Origin: an uncultured Candidatus Saccharibacteria bacterium
Lineage (GTDB): Bacteria; Patescibacteriota; Saccharimonadia; Saccharimonadales; CAYVSP01
Length of the DNA: 64,000 nt
Assembly: GCA_964584265.1 (NCBI GenBank)
Contig: CAZOZI010000004.1
Location: 1,877-65,876, forward strand
Reading direction: 5' to 3'
This document shows, piece after piece, positions 1-40,059 of the stretch. Within the stretch, counting starts at the first letter, position 1. Every line of letters begins with the position of its first letter. The translations under genes were made by a program, and so were the position numbers. The notes under the pieces are model-generated. The model was given only the letters and a program-made list of their open reading frames with translations. It had not been told where the DNA came from and did not search any database.

Positions 1-1812
1 GCACTAGTAATGTACGGTCGAGCTGGAGCCAAGCATGGTCGTGACCCACAATTGTTAATTTTAAGCAGTGAAGCTAAGCAAACGGCGGTACTTAATCTCA
101 CTAAGCTTGATAAAAAAGCTGTCCAGAAATTTTTGAGTACGCACCTAAACAACAAAGCATCGCTGGTTGGCTATGACATCAAATCGACGCTAGAAATCTT
201 GATTGAGCTTGGTGTGCCGCTGCCCGCGGTGGGGCACGATGTACTCATTGGAGCCTTTTTGCTCAACCCGCTTATACGCGAACAATCATTGACTGAGTTG
301 GCTCAAGCTGATCTTGGCTATGATGGTTCATCATTTGAAGATCTTGACCAGGCACAACTAGTTGATCGTGCAGCCGAGATAACAGGTGTAATTACAGCCT
401 TGTATGAAAAACAAACCGCTGCTCTTGCCAAGTTGCCAAAGCTTATTAAGCTGGCTCGTGACATTGAATGGCCGGTTATCCCAGTAATCGCTCGTATGGA
501 ATACGAAGGTATTCAGCTCGATACAGACTACCTCAAAAAAATGAGTGAGCAACTTGACGACATGGTGCTTGAGATTGAGCAAAAAATTTATGGTCACGCC
601 GATCAGGAATTCAATATTGGCTCACCAATCCAGCTAGCCGACATCCTATTTAACAAACTGAATTTGCCTAAAGAAGGTATAAAAAAAGGAAAAACCGGCT
701 ACTCTACAGCTGCCACTGAGCTTGATAAGCTGCGCGGGGCACATCCAATAATTGATCTCGTAACTCAGTGGCGTGAGGTCACCAAACTTAAGAACACCTA
801 CGTCGACGTTATGCCCAAAATGGTGGATGAAAACTCAAGATTACATACCACCTATGCTCTAACCGTCGCGCAAACCGGACGTCTCAGCTCCAATGATCCA
901 AACTTGCAAAATATCCCGGTTCGCACAGACCTCGGTAAGCAGATTCGCACTGCTTTTGTGGCCGGTAAGGGTAAGATACTGGTTAGCGCTGACTATTCTC
1001 AGTTTGAACTACGTCTTGCGGCTTACTTATCTGGCGATAAACGCCTGATTGATATGTTTAACCGCGACGTTGATGTGCATACCACTACTGCCGCCGAAAT
1101 ATATGGCCGCGAAGAACAGGACGTTACTAAAAATATGCGGCGCGAGGCCAAGGTTGTAAATTTTGGCGTAATGTACGGTCTTAGCACGCACGGCCTGGTG
1201 CAGGCTACTGGTCTTACCTACGAACAAGCCAAAAACTTTATTGATAAATACTTTGAAGTTCGCCCAAAGCTACGTGATTATATTGGTTCAGTTCAAGAGA
1301 TGGCCAAAACTAAAGGTTATACAGAGACAATTTTTGGTCGCCGCCGGCCTACACCTGACATTCATTCCTCTAATTTTGCTGTGCGAGAAGCTGCCATGCG
1401 ACAAGCGGTTAACATGCCATTTCAGGGCAGTGCAGCCGACATTATGAAATTGGCCATGATTGCTGTCCAATCTAAGCTCGATGAATTTAATCAGAAGTAT
1501 TTGGGTTTGGATGCAGCGCAAGGAAGCAAGGAGGAGCGAGTGAGCCGTACAAACGGTACGATGAACGAGCGACTGACGCTAGCTGACACAGCGATGCGCC
1601 AAAAGCGCGCCGGTATATCCGGCTCTGCCGGACAACAGGGCAGTGCGGCCCATATACTTCTGCAAATCCATGACAGTTTAATTGTAGAATGCAACGAAAA
1701 AGACGCTGATAAAACGGCCAAATTACTCAAAGATACCATGGAGCACGTCTATAAACTGCCAGTTAAACTCACCGTTGACACCGCAATCGGCAAAAATTGG
1801 GGTGAATTGTGA
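1..1812 (+). CDS. polA: DNA polymerase I, 3' part (5' end outside window)
   Basis: Frame of ORF 10..1812 stays open back to base 1. Family-A polymerase motifs DYSQFELR, RREAKVVNFGVMYG and QIHDSLIVE. Extra ~46-aa segment just before the QIHD strand (see findings). Confidence 0.93.
   Translation, partial: ALVMYGRAGAKHGRDPQLLILSSEAKQTAVLNLTKLDKKAVQKFLSTHLNNKASLVGYDIKSTLEILIELGVPLPAVGHDVLIGAFLLNPLIREQSLTELAQADLGYDGSSFEDLDQAQLVDRAAEITGVITALYEKQTAALAKLPKLIKLARDIEWPVIPVIARMEYEGIQLDTDYLKKMSEQLDDMVLEIEQKIYGHADQEFNIGSPIQLADILFNKLNLPKEGIKKGKTGYSTAATELDKLRGAHPIIDLVTQWREVTKLKNTYVDVMPKMVDENSRLHTTYALTVAQTGRLSSNDPNLQNIPVRTDLGKQIRTAFVAGKGKILVSADYSQFELRLAAYLSGDKRLIDMFNRDVDVHTTTAAEIYGREEQDVTKNMRREAKVVNFGVMYGLSTHGLVQATGLTYEQAKNFIDKYFEVRPKLRDYIGSVQEMAKTKGYTETIFGRRRPTPDIHSSNFAVREAAMRQAVNMPFQGSAADIMKLAMIAVQSKLDEFNQKYLGLDAAQGSKEERVSRTNGTMNERLTLADTAMRQKRAGISGSAGQQGSAAHILLQIHDSLIVECNEKDADKTAKLLKDTMEHVYKLPVKLTVDTAIGKNWGEL
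1510..1648. repeat. P1 palindromic element copy inside polA, in frame
   Basis: GATGCAGCGCAAGGAAG..GGAGCGAG..CCGTAC..GGTACG..GAGCGACTGACGC aligns block by block with the reverse complement of 26308..26426 and 15459..15565. Confidence 0.7.
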
Positions 1813-6745: not shown

Positions 6746-7783
6746 ATGCCGGAGTTGCCAGAGGTTGAGACGGTTAGAAGTGGGCTTAACAGGTTATTGC
6801 CTGGAAAGCGTGTTAAGTATGTAACGCATAATTGGGCTAAATCTTTTCCAAATGCTGAAGAAGATGTAAAGTGGTTTCTAATTGGTGCCAGAATTAAAAA
6901 AGTGGCACGTCGCGCTAAGATCTTACTAATTGAACTTGATAGCAAATATAGCCTGGTGATTCATTTAAAAATGACCGGGCAACTCGTTTTTGTAAAAAAC
7001 AATCCTTCCAGCGTATCTTCAGGCGAGCAGAATTTCGGTGCGAAGGCGAGCAACGGACCGAGTCGTAAAAGGGTTACGGTGAAGGGAGTAACGCAGCCTT
7101 TAAGCCGAAAAGCTGCCGCAAGCCAGTCTGAACAAGCGACTTGGTCGGTTGAGCTGACTGGCGATGAAGATCGCTGGGGGGCAGGGCATCCAAACGATAG
7201 CTTAATAGGTAATCTACCAGATAAAAGCACCAGAGTTATACTCGATTTTGGCGACAGCAAGCTATTTTTTAACGATCAACGCAAATTTGGCTGGATGCGG
7301 CTCATGCCAACCGCCGAAGTGCTCAACATAGACTTTATGAAAAGACTCGGACCTGAGCCATTGAATGCAGATTTTACTCAGACCACTTTCCGCGAGCGAC
7401 TTAGTCGGCGAGCGAATACAAATATTAAGGCTGCGCTGCTGGATCAAAGCGTTATTGCCGGAATCGGCAACATTTATGCCGATGAATCACTGTGGGGTGC
7501 CAAAATTCATCCAGCCACACTGGTTAAAAACCTATCTTTTAATAAACTCAATCAACTATATGATTCCATGCGTAAAGTGCTGAAACTGGCGATTAAAAAG
7601 GGCGGCTCAACCGATCGAAATTATGTAGACGCTGAGGGCAAAAAGGGCAGTTATTTAAGCTTCGCTAAGGTATTTCGGCGCAATGGGCAGCCGTGCCCAC
7701 GCTGCGGTACAATAATTGAGAAGATACGAGTTGCAGGGCGAGGCACACACTTTTGTACAAAGTGCCAGAAGTTGACAAAATAG
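6746..7783 (+). CDS. mutM: formamidopyrimidine-DNA glycosylase
   Basis: MPELPEVETVRSGL N-terminus, H2TH region, C-terminal zinc finger CPRCG...FCTKCQ. Long internal extra segment (see findings). Confidence 0.9.
   Translation: MPELPEVETVRSGLNRLLPGKRVKYVTHNWAKSFPNAEEDVKWFLIGARIKKVARRAKILLIELDSKYSLVIHLKMTGQLVFVKNNPSSVSSGEQNFGAKASNGPSRKRVTVKGVTQPLSRKAAASQSEQATWSVELTGDEDRWGAGHPNDSLIGNLPDKSTRVILDFGDSKLFFNDQRKFGWMRLMPTAEVLNIDFMKRLGPEPLNADFTQTTFRERLSRRANTNIKAALLDQSVIAGIGNIYADESLWGAKIHPATLVKNLSFNKLNQLYDSMRKVLKLAIKKGGSTDRNYVDAEGKKGSYLSFAKVFRRNGQPCPRCGTIIEKIRVAGRGTHFCTKCQKLTK
7031..7175. repeat. diverged P1-like element inside mutM, in frame
   Basis: ATTTCGGTGCGAAGG..GGACCGAGTCGTAAAAGGGTTACGGTGAAGGGAG...GCGATGAAG shares the ATTTCG terminus and the GTGC-AAGG, GGA-CGAG, CGTA/TACG and GTGA-G-GAG blocks with the P1 consensus. 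Confidence 0.5.
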
Positions 7784-10414: not shown

Positions 10415-10602
10415 CATCTGAGAGAACCTGACTATATATTGTACAAAACAGGCGTTCTTGGGTGCGAGAGTTGTTTGACGAGTAAAAGATCCAGTGAATC
10501 TTTTACGAGGAGTTCTCGAGCAAGCCTGTTTTGAACTAATAAATAGATCAAGTGAACGAAGCAGCCCAGCAGTTTTGAGACACTTTTGCTGTCAAAAGTG
10601 TC
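10415..10602 (+). repeat. composite element, right module (structured, RNA-like)
   Basis: Aligns along its length with 31601..31785. Closing helix AACAGGC/GCCTGTT. Internal hairpin TAAAAGAT-CCAGTGA-ATCTTTTA. Terminal hairpin GACACTTTTG-ctgt-CAAAAGTGTC. Confidence 0.65.
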
Positions 10603-10637
10603 AAAGTATTGCTTCTTGGAAAGAAGAAAAGAATAAG

Positions 10638-11012
10638 TTATTTCTTTGTAGTTTTCTTGGGGGCTTTTTTGACCGCTGATTTAGCGGTTGTCCGCTGGCT
10701 AGCGGATTTAGGTACCGTTTTCTTGACAGTCTTGGTAGCAGTTTTCTGGATTTTAGTACCAGCGGCTTTAGCAGCTGCAGCTAGTTGGCGTTGCTTGCGG
10801 GCGACTTTATTCTTGTGCATGATGCCTTTTTTGCCAGCTAAGCCGAGTGCGCTTTGTGCAGCCGCTTGGGCTTCACCCACTTTTTTACCATCAGTTACAG
10901 AAGTCTGAAACGTTTTGAGCGAACTTTTAAGAACACGCTTGGTCTTTAGATTACGTGCTGCCGCCTTTCGAGCGGTACGAACGCGTTTTTTAGCTGATTT
11001 GATAATAGGCAT
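10638..11012 (-). CDS. rpsT: 30S ribosomal protein S20 with Lys-rich C-terminal extension
   Basis: MPIIKSAKKRVRTARKAAARN N-terminus and IMHKNKVARKQRQL core. About 35 extra K/T/A-rich residues at the C-terminus. Confidence 0.9.
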   Translation of the reverse strand: MPIIKSAKKRVRTARKAAARNLKTKRVLKSSLKTFQTSVTDGKKVGEAQAAAQSALGLAGKKGIMHKNKVARKQRQLAAAAKAAGTKIQKTATKTVKKTVPKSASQRTTAKSAVKKAPKKTTKK

Positions 11013-24700: not shown

Positions 24701-24820
24701 TCAGAGTATGAACGTCTATTGACCAACAGGGGTAAGTAAGCTATACTTGTGCGGTCATTAGTACTTCAGGTTACTGCATCTTTTGAGCGAGTAGCCTTTA
24801 ACCAAGAGAAGGACACTATT

Positions 24821-25420
24821 ATGAGTGCACGAGCAACGCAGGCCGATGAAGAACAAGGCGCTGGCGAGGAGCGCAAAGAAGATGTACAACAAAGTACTTC
24901 GACTGCGCACCGGAGTCAGCAACAGGGGTCCCCAGAAAGCCAGCTTTCCGGGGTAAAGCGCCGTAATGCATCGGCAAGTACTGACGGAGTCAGCAGCTCT
25001 CCTGGTGAACAGGTCAGTACGGTGCGTGGGTCGGTGAATCAGTACGAAATTGCTGTGCTATATCATCCGGATTTAGAAATTGATTTGGATAAAGCCGAAA
25101 AACGGGTGACCAAGATTTTTACCGACAACGTTGGCAAGGTGGTCAAAACCGACAATTGGGGCAAGCGTAAATTGGCGTATCCCATCAAAAAGAGTGAGTC
25201 AGCCGTTTACGTATTTTACACAGTTGAAATACCGGCAGAAGGTGTGCGAAAAATTGAAAGCACGCTGAATATTACAGATGAGGTTATACGTTATCTAATT
25301 GTTCGTCCTGATCTTAAGGCTATCGCTAAAGCAGAAGCTGCCAAAACCGAAAAGGCAAAAAAGGCGGCTGAGCGTGGTGATGGCGAAGAAGACAATGAAA
25401 ATGAGCATACAGAGGAATAA
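24821..25420 (+). CDS. rpsF: 30S ribosomal protein S6 (with ~70-aa N-terminal extension, or a shorter protein from GTG 25034)
   Basis: The S6 core starts at NQYEIAVLYHPD. ATG 24821 has GAAGGA upstream and the frame is open throughout. The extension is built from repeat modules (see findings). Confidence 0.85.
   Translation: MSARATQADEEQGAGEERKEDVQQSTSTAHRSQQQGSPESQLSGVKRRNASASTDGVSSSPGEQVSTVRGSVNQYEIAVLYHPDLEIDLDKAEKRVTKIFTDNVGKVVKTDNWGKRKLAYPIKKSESAVYVFYTVEIPAEGVRKIESTLNITDEVIRYLIVRPDLKAIAKAEAAKTEKAKKAAERGDGEEDNENEHTEE
24845..24912. repeat. P1-like element core in the rpsF 5' region
   Basis: GATGAAGAACAAGG..GGAGCGCAAAGAAGATGTACAACAAAGTACTTCGACTGCGC has the same block order as the polA copy (GATG-AG, CAAGG, GGAGCG, GTAC-GTAC, GCGC). 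Confidence 0.55.
24930..24953. repeat. hairpin module GGGGT-[CCCCAGAAAGC..GCTTTCCGGGG]-TAAAG
   Basis: Shares flanks and architecture with 52418..52445 but has a different, still complementary stem sequence. Confidence 0.55.
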
Positions 25421-26301: not shown

Positions 26302-26307
26302 TATTTT

Positions 26308-26426
26308 TAGCCTATATTTCGCGAATTGCGGCGTCAGAACCTCCGCGCTTCGCTCACTGTACTGCTTACGGTACAGCTCGCTCCAGTACTCAGTTCTTCC
26401 TTGCACTTCATCGAAATGATAGGCTA
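26308..26426. repeat. P1 palindromic element, intergenic copy (rpsR-efp)
   Basis: 119-nt imperfect palindrome with termini TAGCCTAT-ATTTCG...CGAAAT-G-ATAGGCTA and core GCTCAC-TGTAC-N8-GTACA-GCTCGCT. Begins 7 nt after the rpsR stop. Confidence 0.75.
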
Positions 26427-26441
26427 AATTAGGAGATAATT

Positions 26442-31489: not shown

Positions 31490-31600
31490 TCTGGCTCTTT
31501 TTTCATGAATCGAGCCAGACTGTCTTTGTCCCAATGACTCGGCCTAACCTGATTGTTCACAATCGGTTTTCTCGAGCCTGGCTAAATCAGGCTCTAGGAA

Positions 31601-31785
31601 CATCTGACTAGATGCTGTAAGAAATAGGCGCCCGTGGGTGCGAGGACTGCTTGACGAGATTTTTAGCCAGTGGCTAAAAATTGAGGAGTTCCGCAGCAAG
31701 CCTGTTTATTACAGCAGATAGATCAAATGTGACGAATGCCTGTCGTTTTTTGGGTTCTGTTTTTGTCGACACAAAAATGGAACAT
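31601..31785 (+). repeat. composite element, right module (ORF-less copy)
   Basis: Closing helix AATAGGC/GCCTGTT and internal hairpin ATTTTTAG-CCAGTGG-CTAAAAAT. Ends with an inverted copy (31738..31785) of the 9541..9589 hairpin block. Confidence 0.65.
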
Positions 31786-39021: not shown

Positions 39022-40059
39022 ATGAGTATGCTGAGTGGTGTATCAGATTTCTTTGGGTTGGACATTGGGACAACCGCTATTCGTTTGGTACAACTTCGCG
39101 GTGGTAATCCAAAAGCGCTAGTAAAATATGCCTTTGCACCCTTGGACAGCAAAATTGCTATGAGTGACTCAAAGGCCGACCAGCAAAAATTGGCGCAAAC
39201 CTTACGTGATCTGTTAGAACAAGCCAATATTGCTACTAGAAATGTTGCTGTTGGCGTGTCTTCAGATCGGGTATTCACAACAGTTGTGGATATTGACCGT
39301 TTAACTCCCGATGAACTTGCTAAAACTATTCGTTATCAAGCTGATTCTCTTATACCCACACCATTAAATGAATCAAAGCTTGACTGGGCTGTCATTGGCG
39401 ATTCTCCTAAAGATAAAACAAAGGTTGAAGTACTTCTCACTAGCGTTACTAACCAATTCGTGGAAAATAGATTAGATATGTTGGAATCAATTGGTCTAAA
39501 TGTAATTGCCTTTGAGCCAGACAGCATCGCGCTAACCAGGGCTATAATTCCATCTGATGCCACTGCCCCGCATATGTTATTGGATATTGGCAATAAAGCG
39601 ACAGATTTAATTGTGACGATGGAGGGATCCCCGCGTCTTATTCGCTCAATTCCAACTGGCAGCGAAGCTATTTTAAAGGCTGCTATGCAAAATCTTAACA
39701 TTGATGAAAAGCAGGCCCAGCAATTTGTCTTTAAGTTCGGGCTGGCCAAGGGCAAACTTGAAGGTCAAATCTATAATGCTATTATTGGTACCGTTGATAT
39801 CTTGACAAGTGAAATTGAAAAATCGATAAAGTTCTTCCAGGCACGCTACACCGGTACAAAGCTTGAGCGCATTATTGTTACTGGCGGTGCATCAGCTTTA
39901 CCAGAGTTTCCTCTTTATCTTGCTAATAAATTCGGACTTAATGTAGAAATTGGAAACGCTTGGCGTAATGTCAGCTTTCCTGCAAGTCGCCAAAATGAAC
40001 TGCTGGCCGTTTCTAATCACTTTGGTGTAGCAGCCGGGCTAGCGGAGAGGCAGGAGTAA
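39022..40059 (+). CDS. pilM: type IV pilus assembly protein PilM
   Basis: Actin-like ATPase fold: GLDIGTTAIRLVQL N-terminus, IIVTGGASALPEF C-terminal phosphate-2 motif. Confidence 0.88.
   Translation: MSMLSGVSDFFGLDIGTTAIRLVQLRGGNPKALVKYAFAPLDSKIAMSDSKADQQKLAQTLRDLLEQANIATRNVAVGVSSDRVFTTVVDIDRLTPDELAKTIRYQADSLIPTPLNESKLDWAVIGDSPKDKTKVEVLLTSVTNQFVENRLDMLESIGLNVIAFEPDSIALTRAIIPSDATAPHMLLDIGNKATDLIVTMEGSPRLIRSIPTGSEAILKAAMQNLNIDEKQAQQFVFKFGLAKGKLEGQIYNAIIGTVDILTSEIEKSIKFFQARYTGTKLERIIVTGGASALPEFPLYLANKFGLNVEIGNAWRNVSFPASRQNELLAVSNHFGVAAGLAERQE

Follow-up and report, generated by a model that had tools for sequence, protein, structure and literature searches.

The open reading frame (ORF) at positions 6746..7783 of the window, by which we mean the whole 64-kb stretch of contig CAZOZI010000004.1 analysed here, is the fpg/mutM gene. 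Its product harbors the three Pfam domains of Fpg/MutM (Fapy_DNA_glyco, residues 1-87; H2TH, 201-289; zf-FPG, 314-342), the P-E-L-P-E-V-E N-terminus and a CxxC...CxxC zinc finger. A preliminary description of this DNA held that the gene contains an in-frame segment lacking in classical Fpg proteins, that this segment is a diverged copy of P1, a palindromic element located in a spacer of the same window, and that polA was invaded in the same way. In the present work, we analysed the extent, the structure, the relatives and the possible history of this segment.

In comparison with the solved Fpg structures, residues 81-158 of the protein take the place of a loop of about 10 residues, which amounts to about 68 extra residues; the presence of a segment lacking in classical Fpg is confirmed. 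About 15 of these residues (RFGAGHPNDSL..LPDK) were found in all of the 120 closest homologues and are not part of the insert. The codon alignment with the insert-free orthologue L008 assigns 53 codons to the insert itself. The 120 closest homologues are of the Saccharimonadales type, most of them 288-293 residues long with MTGQLVF-x5-8-RFGAGHPNDSL at the insert site; in a minority, the very same position holds an additional segment of between 8 and about 60 residues. Homologues of the segment of the window were retrieved from seven other proteins, that is, P0002 (locus L006), P0003 (L007), P0010 (L003 and L004), P0012 (L001), P0016 (L005), P0021 (L002) and the more distant P0045 (L010); the insert junctions are the same in seven lineages. 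A homologous segment in unrelated phyla had been named as a finding that would refute this interpretation; Fpg from other phyla lacks it, and its distribution is patchy even among the closest orthologues.

The insert has a G+C content of 55%, against about 40% in its flanks, and a minimum free energy, computed for DNA, of -41.3 vs -25.3 ± 3 for shuffled sequences (z = -5.3). A regression of the minimum free energy on G+C over 160-nt windows across the whole stretch did not flag it. The preliminary description had placed the segment at 7031-7175; the features recognised here, which replace those boundaries, are as follows (A1 is the alignment of the orthologous Fpg inserts, and R1 the covariance model of the family described below).

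6746..7783, + strand: fpg/mutM host ORF, 345 aa, with the N-terminal PELPEVE motif, H2TH and four-cysteine zinc finger
7001..7159, + strand: in-frame insert, 159 nt, 53 codons (NPSSVSS...VELTG), from the codon alignment with L008
7007..7178, + strand: whole conserved structure of seven Fpg inserts (closing stem, main hairpin and second hairpin)
7011..7129, + strand: element proper, full-length match to R1 (positions 1-119 of 119, 51.1 bits)
7007..7021, + strand: 5' arm of the outer closing stem (TCCAGCG 7007-7013, CTTCA 7017-7021)
7022..7120, + strand: main irregular hairpin (A1 columns 27-125), with compensatory changes in 13 of 22 long-helix pairs
7064-7068 with 7074-7078, + strand: apical hairpin (CGTAA with TTACG) at the apex of the main hairpin
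7122..7162, + strand: second, smaller hairpin (A1 columns 127-167), with compensatory changes in 8 of 12 pairs
7165..7178, + strand: 3' arm of the outer closing stem (TGAAG 7165-7169, CGCTGGG 7172-7178), over the codons for D-R-W

In the closing stem, 7007-7013 pairs with 7172-7178, and 7017-7021 with 7165-7169. The CGCTGG of this stem encodes R-W in the insert-bearing orthologues, while the insert-free ones have RF. The same three-part layout (closing stem, main hairpin and second hairpin) was also found in the polA insert and in the copies of the genome JBAZQK01. Regarding the details proposed earlier, the internal hairpin CGTAA..TTACG is real and represents the apical hairpin (7064-7078), GCAGC..GCTGC does not form a separate hairpin in the conserved structure, and GCGATGAAG, formerly read as the second P1 terminus, belongs instead to the outer closing stem, past the second hairpin.

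The relationship with P1 cannot be seen by pairwise comparison. Smith-Waterman and blastn searches of the Fpg segment against P1 retrieved no significant similarity, and the pairwise score (18 vs 15 ± 2 for shuffled sequences) was equalled by 56 of 500 shuffles; P1 and polA, in contrast, scored 41 vs 16.6 ± 2.7, which is highly significant. Moreover, a repeat search of the window linked none of the family copies to one another. Taken alone, the pairwise evidence would have led us to reject the relationship.

The profile scan suggested in the preliminary description is clearly positive, but only when the structure and the orthologues are used. A profile hidden Markov model (HMM), built from seven orthologous Fpg inserts alone and searched against 150 kb, had as its two best non-self matches polA (1530..1576, E = 7e-4) and P1 (26418..26330, E = 2e-3). 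The two real segments scored 15.6 and 13.8 bits, respectively, against at most 4.7 bits for composition-matched shuffles of them, and no match above 8.3 bits was obtained from 40 locally shuffled windows. The covariance model R1 (119 positions) was built from 40 family members of other genomes and contains no sequence from the window or from any Fpg. Searched with filters off, it matched fpg from end to end (7011..7129, 51.1 bits, E = 1e-12, model positions 1-119 of 119), and each of the orthologous Fpg inserts with E values from 1e-11 to 5e-22. At the core, the Fpg copy reads GACCGAGTCGTAA-AAGGG-TTACGGTGAAGGGAG; the exact GAGCGAGCYGTA-loop-TACRGTGAGCG pattern is absent, and the columns align to the core one by one. 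The core match to P1 noticed earlier (GGACCGAGTCGTAA..TTACGGTGAAGGGAG vs GGAGCGAGCTGTAC..GTACAGTGAGCGAAG) stands, the HMM and the covariance model yielding the same alignment. According to these data, the Fpg copy belongs to the hairpin repeat family by both sequence and structure, and it is simply the most diverged in sequence. We therefore consider it very probable that the extra Fpg segment derives, as first proposed, from the P1/polA element as a diverged copy; this element is a small repeat of about 120 nt (about 160 nt with the second hairpin and the closing stem) that forms a hairpin and does not code for protein.

The behaviour of the insert inside the gene was then considered at the level of reading frame, protein and nucleotides. 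The eight orthologous inserts contain no in-frame stop, vs 20 and 23 stops in the other two frames, and all their lengths are divisible by three, which suggests that ribosomes would read through the insert. The insert leaves the catalytic N-terminus, the H2TH domain and the zinc finger untouched. In the AlphaFold model, residues 89-139 have a predicted local distance difference test (pLDDT) value below 50 and no secondary structure, the remaining model being confident; this stretch lies between the strands 78-85 and 141-147 of the N-terminal domain, so that the insert is predicted to encode what is probably a disordered loop between two beta strands.

The comparison of the orthologues revealed a different kind of conservation in the insert and in the rest of the gene. 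The amino acid identity is 47% in the insert and 68% outside it, and the nucleotide identity is 68% and 63%, respectively. The proportion of synonymous differences (pS) is 0.39 in the insert and 0.84 (saturated) in the rest of the gene, and that of non-synonymous differences (pN) 0.30 and 0.22, giving pN/pS values of about 0.78 and about 0.26. At third codon positions the identity rises sharply at both boundaries of the insert, from 0.28-0.46 in the rest of the gene to 0.59-0.75 within it. Furthermore, 93% of the cells of A1 are paired, against 28-47% in slid controls, and 30 of 58 pairs have changed on both sides, vs 15.9 ± 2.4 in shuffles (0/500). The constraint among the Fpg orthologues thus acts on nucleotides and base pairs, not on the peptide.

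At least five copies of the family are present in this 64-kb Saccharimonadales-type window; those outside fpg, together with a weaker match, are listed below, the rpsO-pnp and rpsF copies not having been reported before.

1492..1647, + strand: in-frame insert in polA, sister copy (156 nt, 52 aa); R1 match 1494..1613, 67 bits
15453..15573, - strand: copy in the rpsO-pnp spacer; R1, 84 bits
24829..24951, + strand: copy upstream of the rpsF core sequence; R1, 35.8 bits, E = 5e-8
26307..26428, - strand: P1, in the rpsR-efp spacer; R1, 93 bits
38911..39026, + strand: weak R1 match, 19.7 bits, E = 0.004

The claim that polA was invaded in frame as well as fpg holds: the 156-nt insert is absent from the polA of L001 and L005, and in L004 this site holds another, short insert. 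At the core, the polA and fpg copies share one reading frame. The outer 9-bp stem of polA pairs CAGAAGTAT (1492-1500) with ATACTTCTG (1650-1658), where ATACTTCTG corresponds to the native codons I-L-L of the conserved ILLQIHD/LLQIHD motif and its inverted copy CAGAAGTAT forms the 5' boundary. The polA fold of 1490..1620 shows no excess stability (z ~0), the structure emerging only when the whole 1486..1670 is folded, with the second hairpin and the closing stem included.

The rpsO-pnp copy fills the spacer and abuts the rpsO stop codon, which places a long hairpin in the pnp leader; a copy is found in the same spacer of L009 (19123-19250, - strand), and none in L001, L002 and L010. In E. coli, a hairpin cleaved by RNase III at the corresponding position of the pnp leader controls pnp. 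The rpsF copy lies about 100 nt upstream of the conserved part of S6, and the ORF 24749..25420 is open through it; the element may thus represent a 5' leader or else an extension of the N-terminus. The weak match, which ends by the start of an ORF at 39022, may represent a decayed sixth copy.

Outside the window, we searched one genome per species with the core pattern GAGCGAGCYGTA-N4-12-TACRGTGAGCG, which is shared by P1 and the intergenic copy of L009. The search retrieved 72 loci, nearly all from Patescibacteria, about 10 chance matches being estimated; the taxa include Saccharibacteria, Yanofsky-, Uhr-, Falkow-, Doudna-, Kerfeld- and Taylorbacteria, Paceibacterota and Minisyncoccia. In the 40 copies used for R1, an irregular hairpin of 36 pairs has 89.5% of its cells paired, vs 65% in shuffles and 26-39% in slid controls; 28 of the 36 pairs have changed on both sides, and the covariation score is 0.60 vs 0.17 in shuffles, none of 500 reaching it. 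RNAalifold run on a plain MAFFT alignment of 67 copies recovered the apical hairpin alone, so that the curated subset was needed.

JBAZQK01 contains five copies of about 185 nt that are nearly identical to one another; every one of them ends in perfect terminal inverted repeats of 14 nt, which read TAGGACTTACGGG...CCCGTAAGTCCTA and are flanked by TA. In the fpg and polA copies, the outer inverted repeat is partly host coding sequence. Related genomes differ in the presence of the element at the polA, fpg and rpsO-pnp sites. Out of 74 core matches, 15 lie deep within long ORFs, in either orientation (12 of the 15 are antisense to the host gene), and copies in both orientations always leave the frame open. 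Copies stand in frame in Pol I (5'-exonuclease domain), in IleRS at three sites, in ArgRS at two, in DnaE and in a methyltransferase. When the peptide of the polA insert was used as query, an exhaustive phmmer search retrieved 13 further proteins, including MPG glycosylase, a PP-loop ATPase (TilS-like), TsaE, TruB and inositol monophosphatase; a separate search for homologous proteins with the same peptide returned nothing.

We found no described family that corresponds to this one. In Rfam 15, the best match of the region 6900..7300 was Twister-P5 (16 bits vs a threshold of 37.6, E = 0.5), P1 and the canonical copy L030 gave nothing better than E ~4, and only five tRNAs reached the gathering score in the whole window. 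A likeness to domain V of group II introns (GAGCCGUA..UACGG) was considered and dropped, since the present helix is the shorter one and the arrangement of bulge and tetraloop is missing from it. In the literature on palindromic, MITE (miniature inverted-repeat transposable element) or RPE (Rickettsia palindromic element) type repeats of Patescibacteria and Saccharibacteria, no description of such a family was found.

We can depict the following scenario. The family would have spread as a non-autonomous, MITE-like or RPE-like structured repeat mobilised in trans. Copies landing in essential genes would persist only if in frame, free of stops and in a permissive surface loop, and a survival filter of this kind would turn the same Fpg and PolA loops into hot spots. 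The hairpin would then be kept in place, either by selection on the single-stranded form (the mRNA, or the DNA during replication) or by templated repair from arm to arm; repair of the quasi-palindrome would also make the stem grow into the adjoining codons of the host. The fixed G.U pair and the conservation of the asymmetric loops favour selection on the folded single strand, and the extension of the stems into host codons favours self-correction by template switching.

Several observations weigh against this scenario or against parts of it. The strong score of the Fpg copy of the window depends on the structure, the sequence-only family HMM being marginal (E = 0.03; the orthologous insert of L010 reaches 1e-10), and its translation is deduced from the sequence. 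The TA found on both sides of P1 and of the JBAZQK01 copies is inseparable from the inverted repeat itself, so that a target duplication is ambiguous there, and neither fpg nor polA shows an evident one. Conservation within the family is highest in an internal core, not at the termini, which is unusual for a MITE. Lastly, the insert-bearing proteins are scattered over the Fpg tree, and a tblastn search with one Y1 query, the only check made for a mobilising enzyme, found no Y1 transposase in the window. A Y1 transposase gene of the IS200/RAYT type (RAYT, REP-associated tyrosine transposase; REP, repetitive extragenic palindrome) is located on the related contig L003 (12645-13262) and has no counterpart in the window; with this single gene on a related contig, a Y1/RAYT enzyme was rejected as the mobiliser.

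Different explanations can be put forward for the segment and for its conservation. An ordinary lineage-specific expansion of a protein loop, whose likeness to P1 and polA would be a by-product of a G+C-rich composition, would account for the chance-level pairwise alignment with P1 and for the varying loop length of the orthologues; it was rejected as extremely improbable, given the full-length R1 match (51 bits, E = 1e-12), the gap between real segments (15.6 and 13.8 bits) and their shuffles (at most 4.7) and the constraint at the nucleotide and not the peptide level. No more credible is an intervening sequence (mini-intron, intein or ribosomal bypass element) that would be eliminated before the message is translated or in the course of translation: the long helix does bring both junctions together, but the insert has just 53 codons, the eight orthologous inserts have no in-frame stop (20 and 23 in the other frames) and lengths always divisible by three, the protein has Fpg domains only and no intein/Hint domain, no intron RNA family was matched, and elsewhere copies in both orientations keep the frame open. 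Two other views concern what preserves the hairpin. It might be a domesticated functional RNA, as might the conserved core of the family in general, kept on the sense strand for the benefit of the cell, mobility being only its origin; a conserved Patescibacteria protein or RNase could bind or cut it and in this way set the stability of the mRNA or the rate of its translation, or it could contain a small RNA. The silent sites strongly conserved within the insert only, the compensatory changes in place (30 of 58 pairs), the asymmetric internal loops and invariant G.U pair kept across distant Patescibacteria classes, and the rpsO-pnp copy conserved in two genomes all speak for it, as does the excess of G.U over A.C pairs (23 vs 9, p = 0.02) on the fpg sense strand. 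In the wider family, however, this asymmetry is confined to three fixed wobble positions, the counts outside them being balanced (38 vs 33); most close Fpg orthologues manage without the insert, much of the folding advantage is gone from the polA copy in the 131 nt of the first test (z ~0), copies occur in both orientations to host genes (12 of the 15 in ORFs being antisense), and no Rfam family matches. Overall, we regard a domesticated RNA as unlikely. Neutral maintenance, in which the palindrome corrects itself without selection, by intramolecular template switching or hairpin-directed repair during replication, and its stem grows into the flanks, appears doubtful. Mutagenesis by template switching in quasi-palindromes is reportedly established (Ripley; Lovett), the outer stem does enter native host codons both in fpg (RF to RW, CGCTGG) and in polA (ATACTTCTG, I-L-L), and in fpg two-sided pair changes far exceed one-sided ones. 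Yet such a process should perfect the palindrome, and the same asymmetric loops, tandem G-A positions and fixed G.U persist in very distant lineages; nor does it explain the conservation of loop nucleotides and of unpaired silent sites.

As to the history of the insertion, with the insert masked, the Fpg of the window is 80-82% identical to ten insert-free proteins and at most 74% to any insert-bearing one. Since the inserts are scattered and the closest relatives are insert-free, either a single ancient insertion was followed by many precise losses or the same site was invaded again. The latter would imply a homing-like, site-specific re-insertion, in which an Fpg-adapted sub-lineage of the element repeatedly targets the same codon position in Saccharimonadales lineages, the inserts being younger than their hosts. 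This would fit the patchy distribution and the insert-free closest relatives, the insert divergence of about 0.3 at all codon positions (well under the saturated silent divergence of the host), the flanks without raised similarity, which make recombination tracts unlikely, the identical junctions in seven lineages and the unrelated hairpins in the same loop of other lineages. On the other hand, the insert distances follow those of the host gene (Mantel r = 0.75, p = 0.007), young copies decaying neutrally would be expected to lose pairs instead of compensating them, and the Fpg copy of the window is much closer to the other Fpg copies than to the four others of its own genome. We also know of no enzyme that could target the site. 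Re-insertion seems quite improbable. The Mantel tracking, the much greater closeness of the Fpg copies to one another than to the remaining copies of their respective genomes, and the identical junctions argue for common descent. By the simplest interpretation, a single old insertion was passed on vertically and later underwent precise loss on many occasions, palindromes being easily deleted. Only tentatively do we entertain a more far-reaching view, according to which the element would be more than selfish DNA: a structured module, with fixed internal loops and an invariant G.U pair, that a Patescibacteria-wide machinery reads and that, once within a gene, is under purifying selection as a folded single strand, so that essential mRNAs such as fpg would carry a selected RNA or single-stranded DNA structure that overrides codon-level evolution. 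Or else it would be a homing-type element re-targeting the same fpg codon in separate lineages.

Other observations concern the same gene. In one lineage only (fpg of P0021, L002 4500-4702), the insert is flanked by a direct repeat: the 21-nt 5' junction GCGATTGGCGATGCAACTCGT repeats the 3' junction CTTGGCGATGCAACTCGC, and GDATR appears twice in the protein. The same Fpg loop harbors unrelated hairpins in other lineages, at L009 10247-10393 (z = -5.1) and L011 10247-10384 (z = -2.3), and in the proteins P0074, P0080, P0086, P0096 and P0097; one of these unrelated inserts is a near-perfect 147-nt hairpin encoding '..DWIPDQVRND..'. The loop thus acts as a general landing or survival site for hairpins. 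A second insertion hot spot of Fpg is located after the 'DLxD' strand (P0010, P0014, P0066). A 23S_rRNA_IVP-family gene lies directly downstream of fpg in L003 (6169-6531) and L004 (11112-11474), with no counterpart in the window.

The window contains further repeats. A second, unrelated non-coding set has its members about 22 kb apart (9541-9604/31722-31785, 9626-9655/31460-31489 and 10417-10482/31593-31658); one pair is inverted (64 nt, 88% complementary), two are direct, and no Rfam family matches. The set includes the two most stably folding 160-nt windows of the 64 kb (31561-31720 and 10541-10700). Moreover, a repeat of about 60-90 nt that contains GGTGTGCCTGCCTGCCGTAGGTAGGGAA occurs three to four times between 55876 and 58221, in spacers near tRNA genes; these copies may represent a repeated promoter/leader or another element.

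To our knowledge, palindromic repeats in frame within essential genes had hitherto been regarded as essentially a peculiarity of Rickettsia. The same behaviour is now found in the Patescibacteria (CPR, for Candidate Phyla Radiation), a huge and mostly uncultivated radiation with tiny genomes, and the family accounts for part of the unexplained 'CPR-specific insertions' in conserved proteins. The R1 model allows annotators to recognise such segments, with the warning that they are not protein domains. The Fpg insert is also a rare natural case of a coding segment constrained at the level of nucleotides and base pairs while its peptide drifts, and it opens testable questions on the birth of protein loops from selfish DNA and on whether it is selection or self-repair that maintains hairpins in mRNA or in DNA under replication.

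Among the known systems of small bacterial repeats, the REPs and bacterial interspersed mosaic elements (BIMEs) with their RAYT (Y1) are likewise structured and palindromic, and a Y1_Tnp gene is present on the related contig L003. REPs, however, are 20-40 nt long, have a GTAG-type head and are clustered, whereas the present units are irregular multi-loop hairpins of 120-160 nt in solitary copies, and the window harbors no Y1 transposase. The bacterial MITEs, such as the Correia elements/NEMIS of Neisseria, are also small and non-coding; the JBAZQK01 copies resemble them in size, in their perfect 14-nt terminal inverted repeats, in the number of near-identical copies in one genome and in the TA on both sides, but a target duplication is not demonstrated, and no cognate insertion sequence or transposase was found, 8-20 kb having been covered around each copy. 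Unlike in MITEs, the internal core is conserved here, and the termini vary between genomes yet stay complementary.

The enterobacterial repetitive intergenic consensus sequences, or intergenic repeat units (ERIC/IRU), are imperfect palindromes of about 127 bp, mostly extragenic. They share with the present family an unusually high nucleotide conservation between species, folding as RNA and occasional copies within genes that add peptides; they differ in sequence and taxon, and the in-frame invasion of essential enzymes is untypical of ERIC. Related enterobacterial small repeats with ORFs are described in PMC2759123.

The closest analogues appear to be the Rickettsia palindromic elements, RPE-1 to RPE-10 (Ogata et al. 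2000, as summarised in PMC10969869), and the analogy would be one of function, with no membership claimed. Like the RPEs, the members of this family are palindromic repeats of about 100-150 bp that encode nothing by themselves and are scattered over spacers as well as, in frame, over unrelated housekeeping genes; the inserted peptides are tolerated where the protein fold allows, and the host is a host-dependent bacterium with a reduced genome. The host phylum is different (Patescibacteria, not Rickettsia), so that a relationship in sequence is not expected. Furthermore, this family has a single 30-nt core conserved across many Patescibacteria classes, and one orthologous insertion, the closing stem of which reaches into the host codons, has demonstrably kept both its hairpin and its silent sites. 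What is new is thus a Patescibacteria-wide family of structured repeats that behaves like the RPEs, with the unusual addition of a conservation at the level of nucleotides and base pairs within a coding region.

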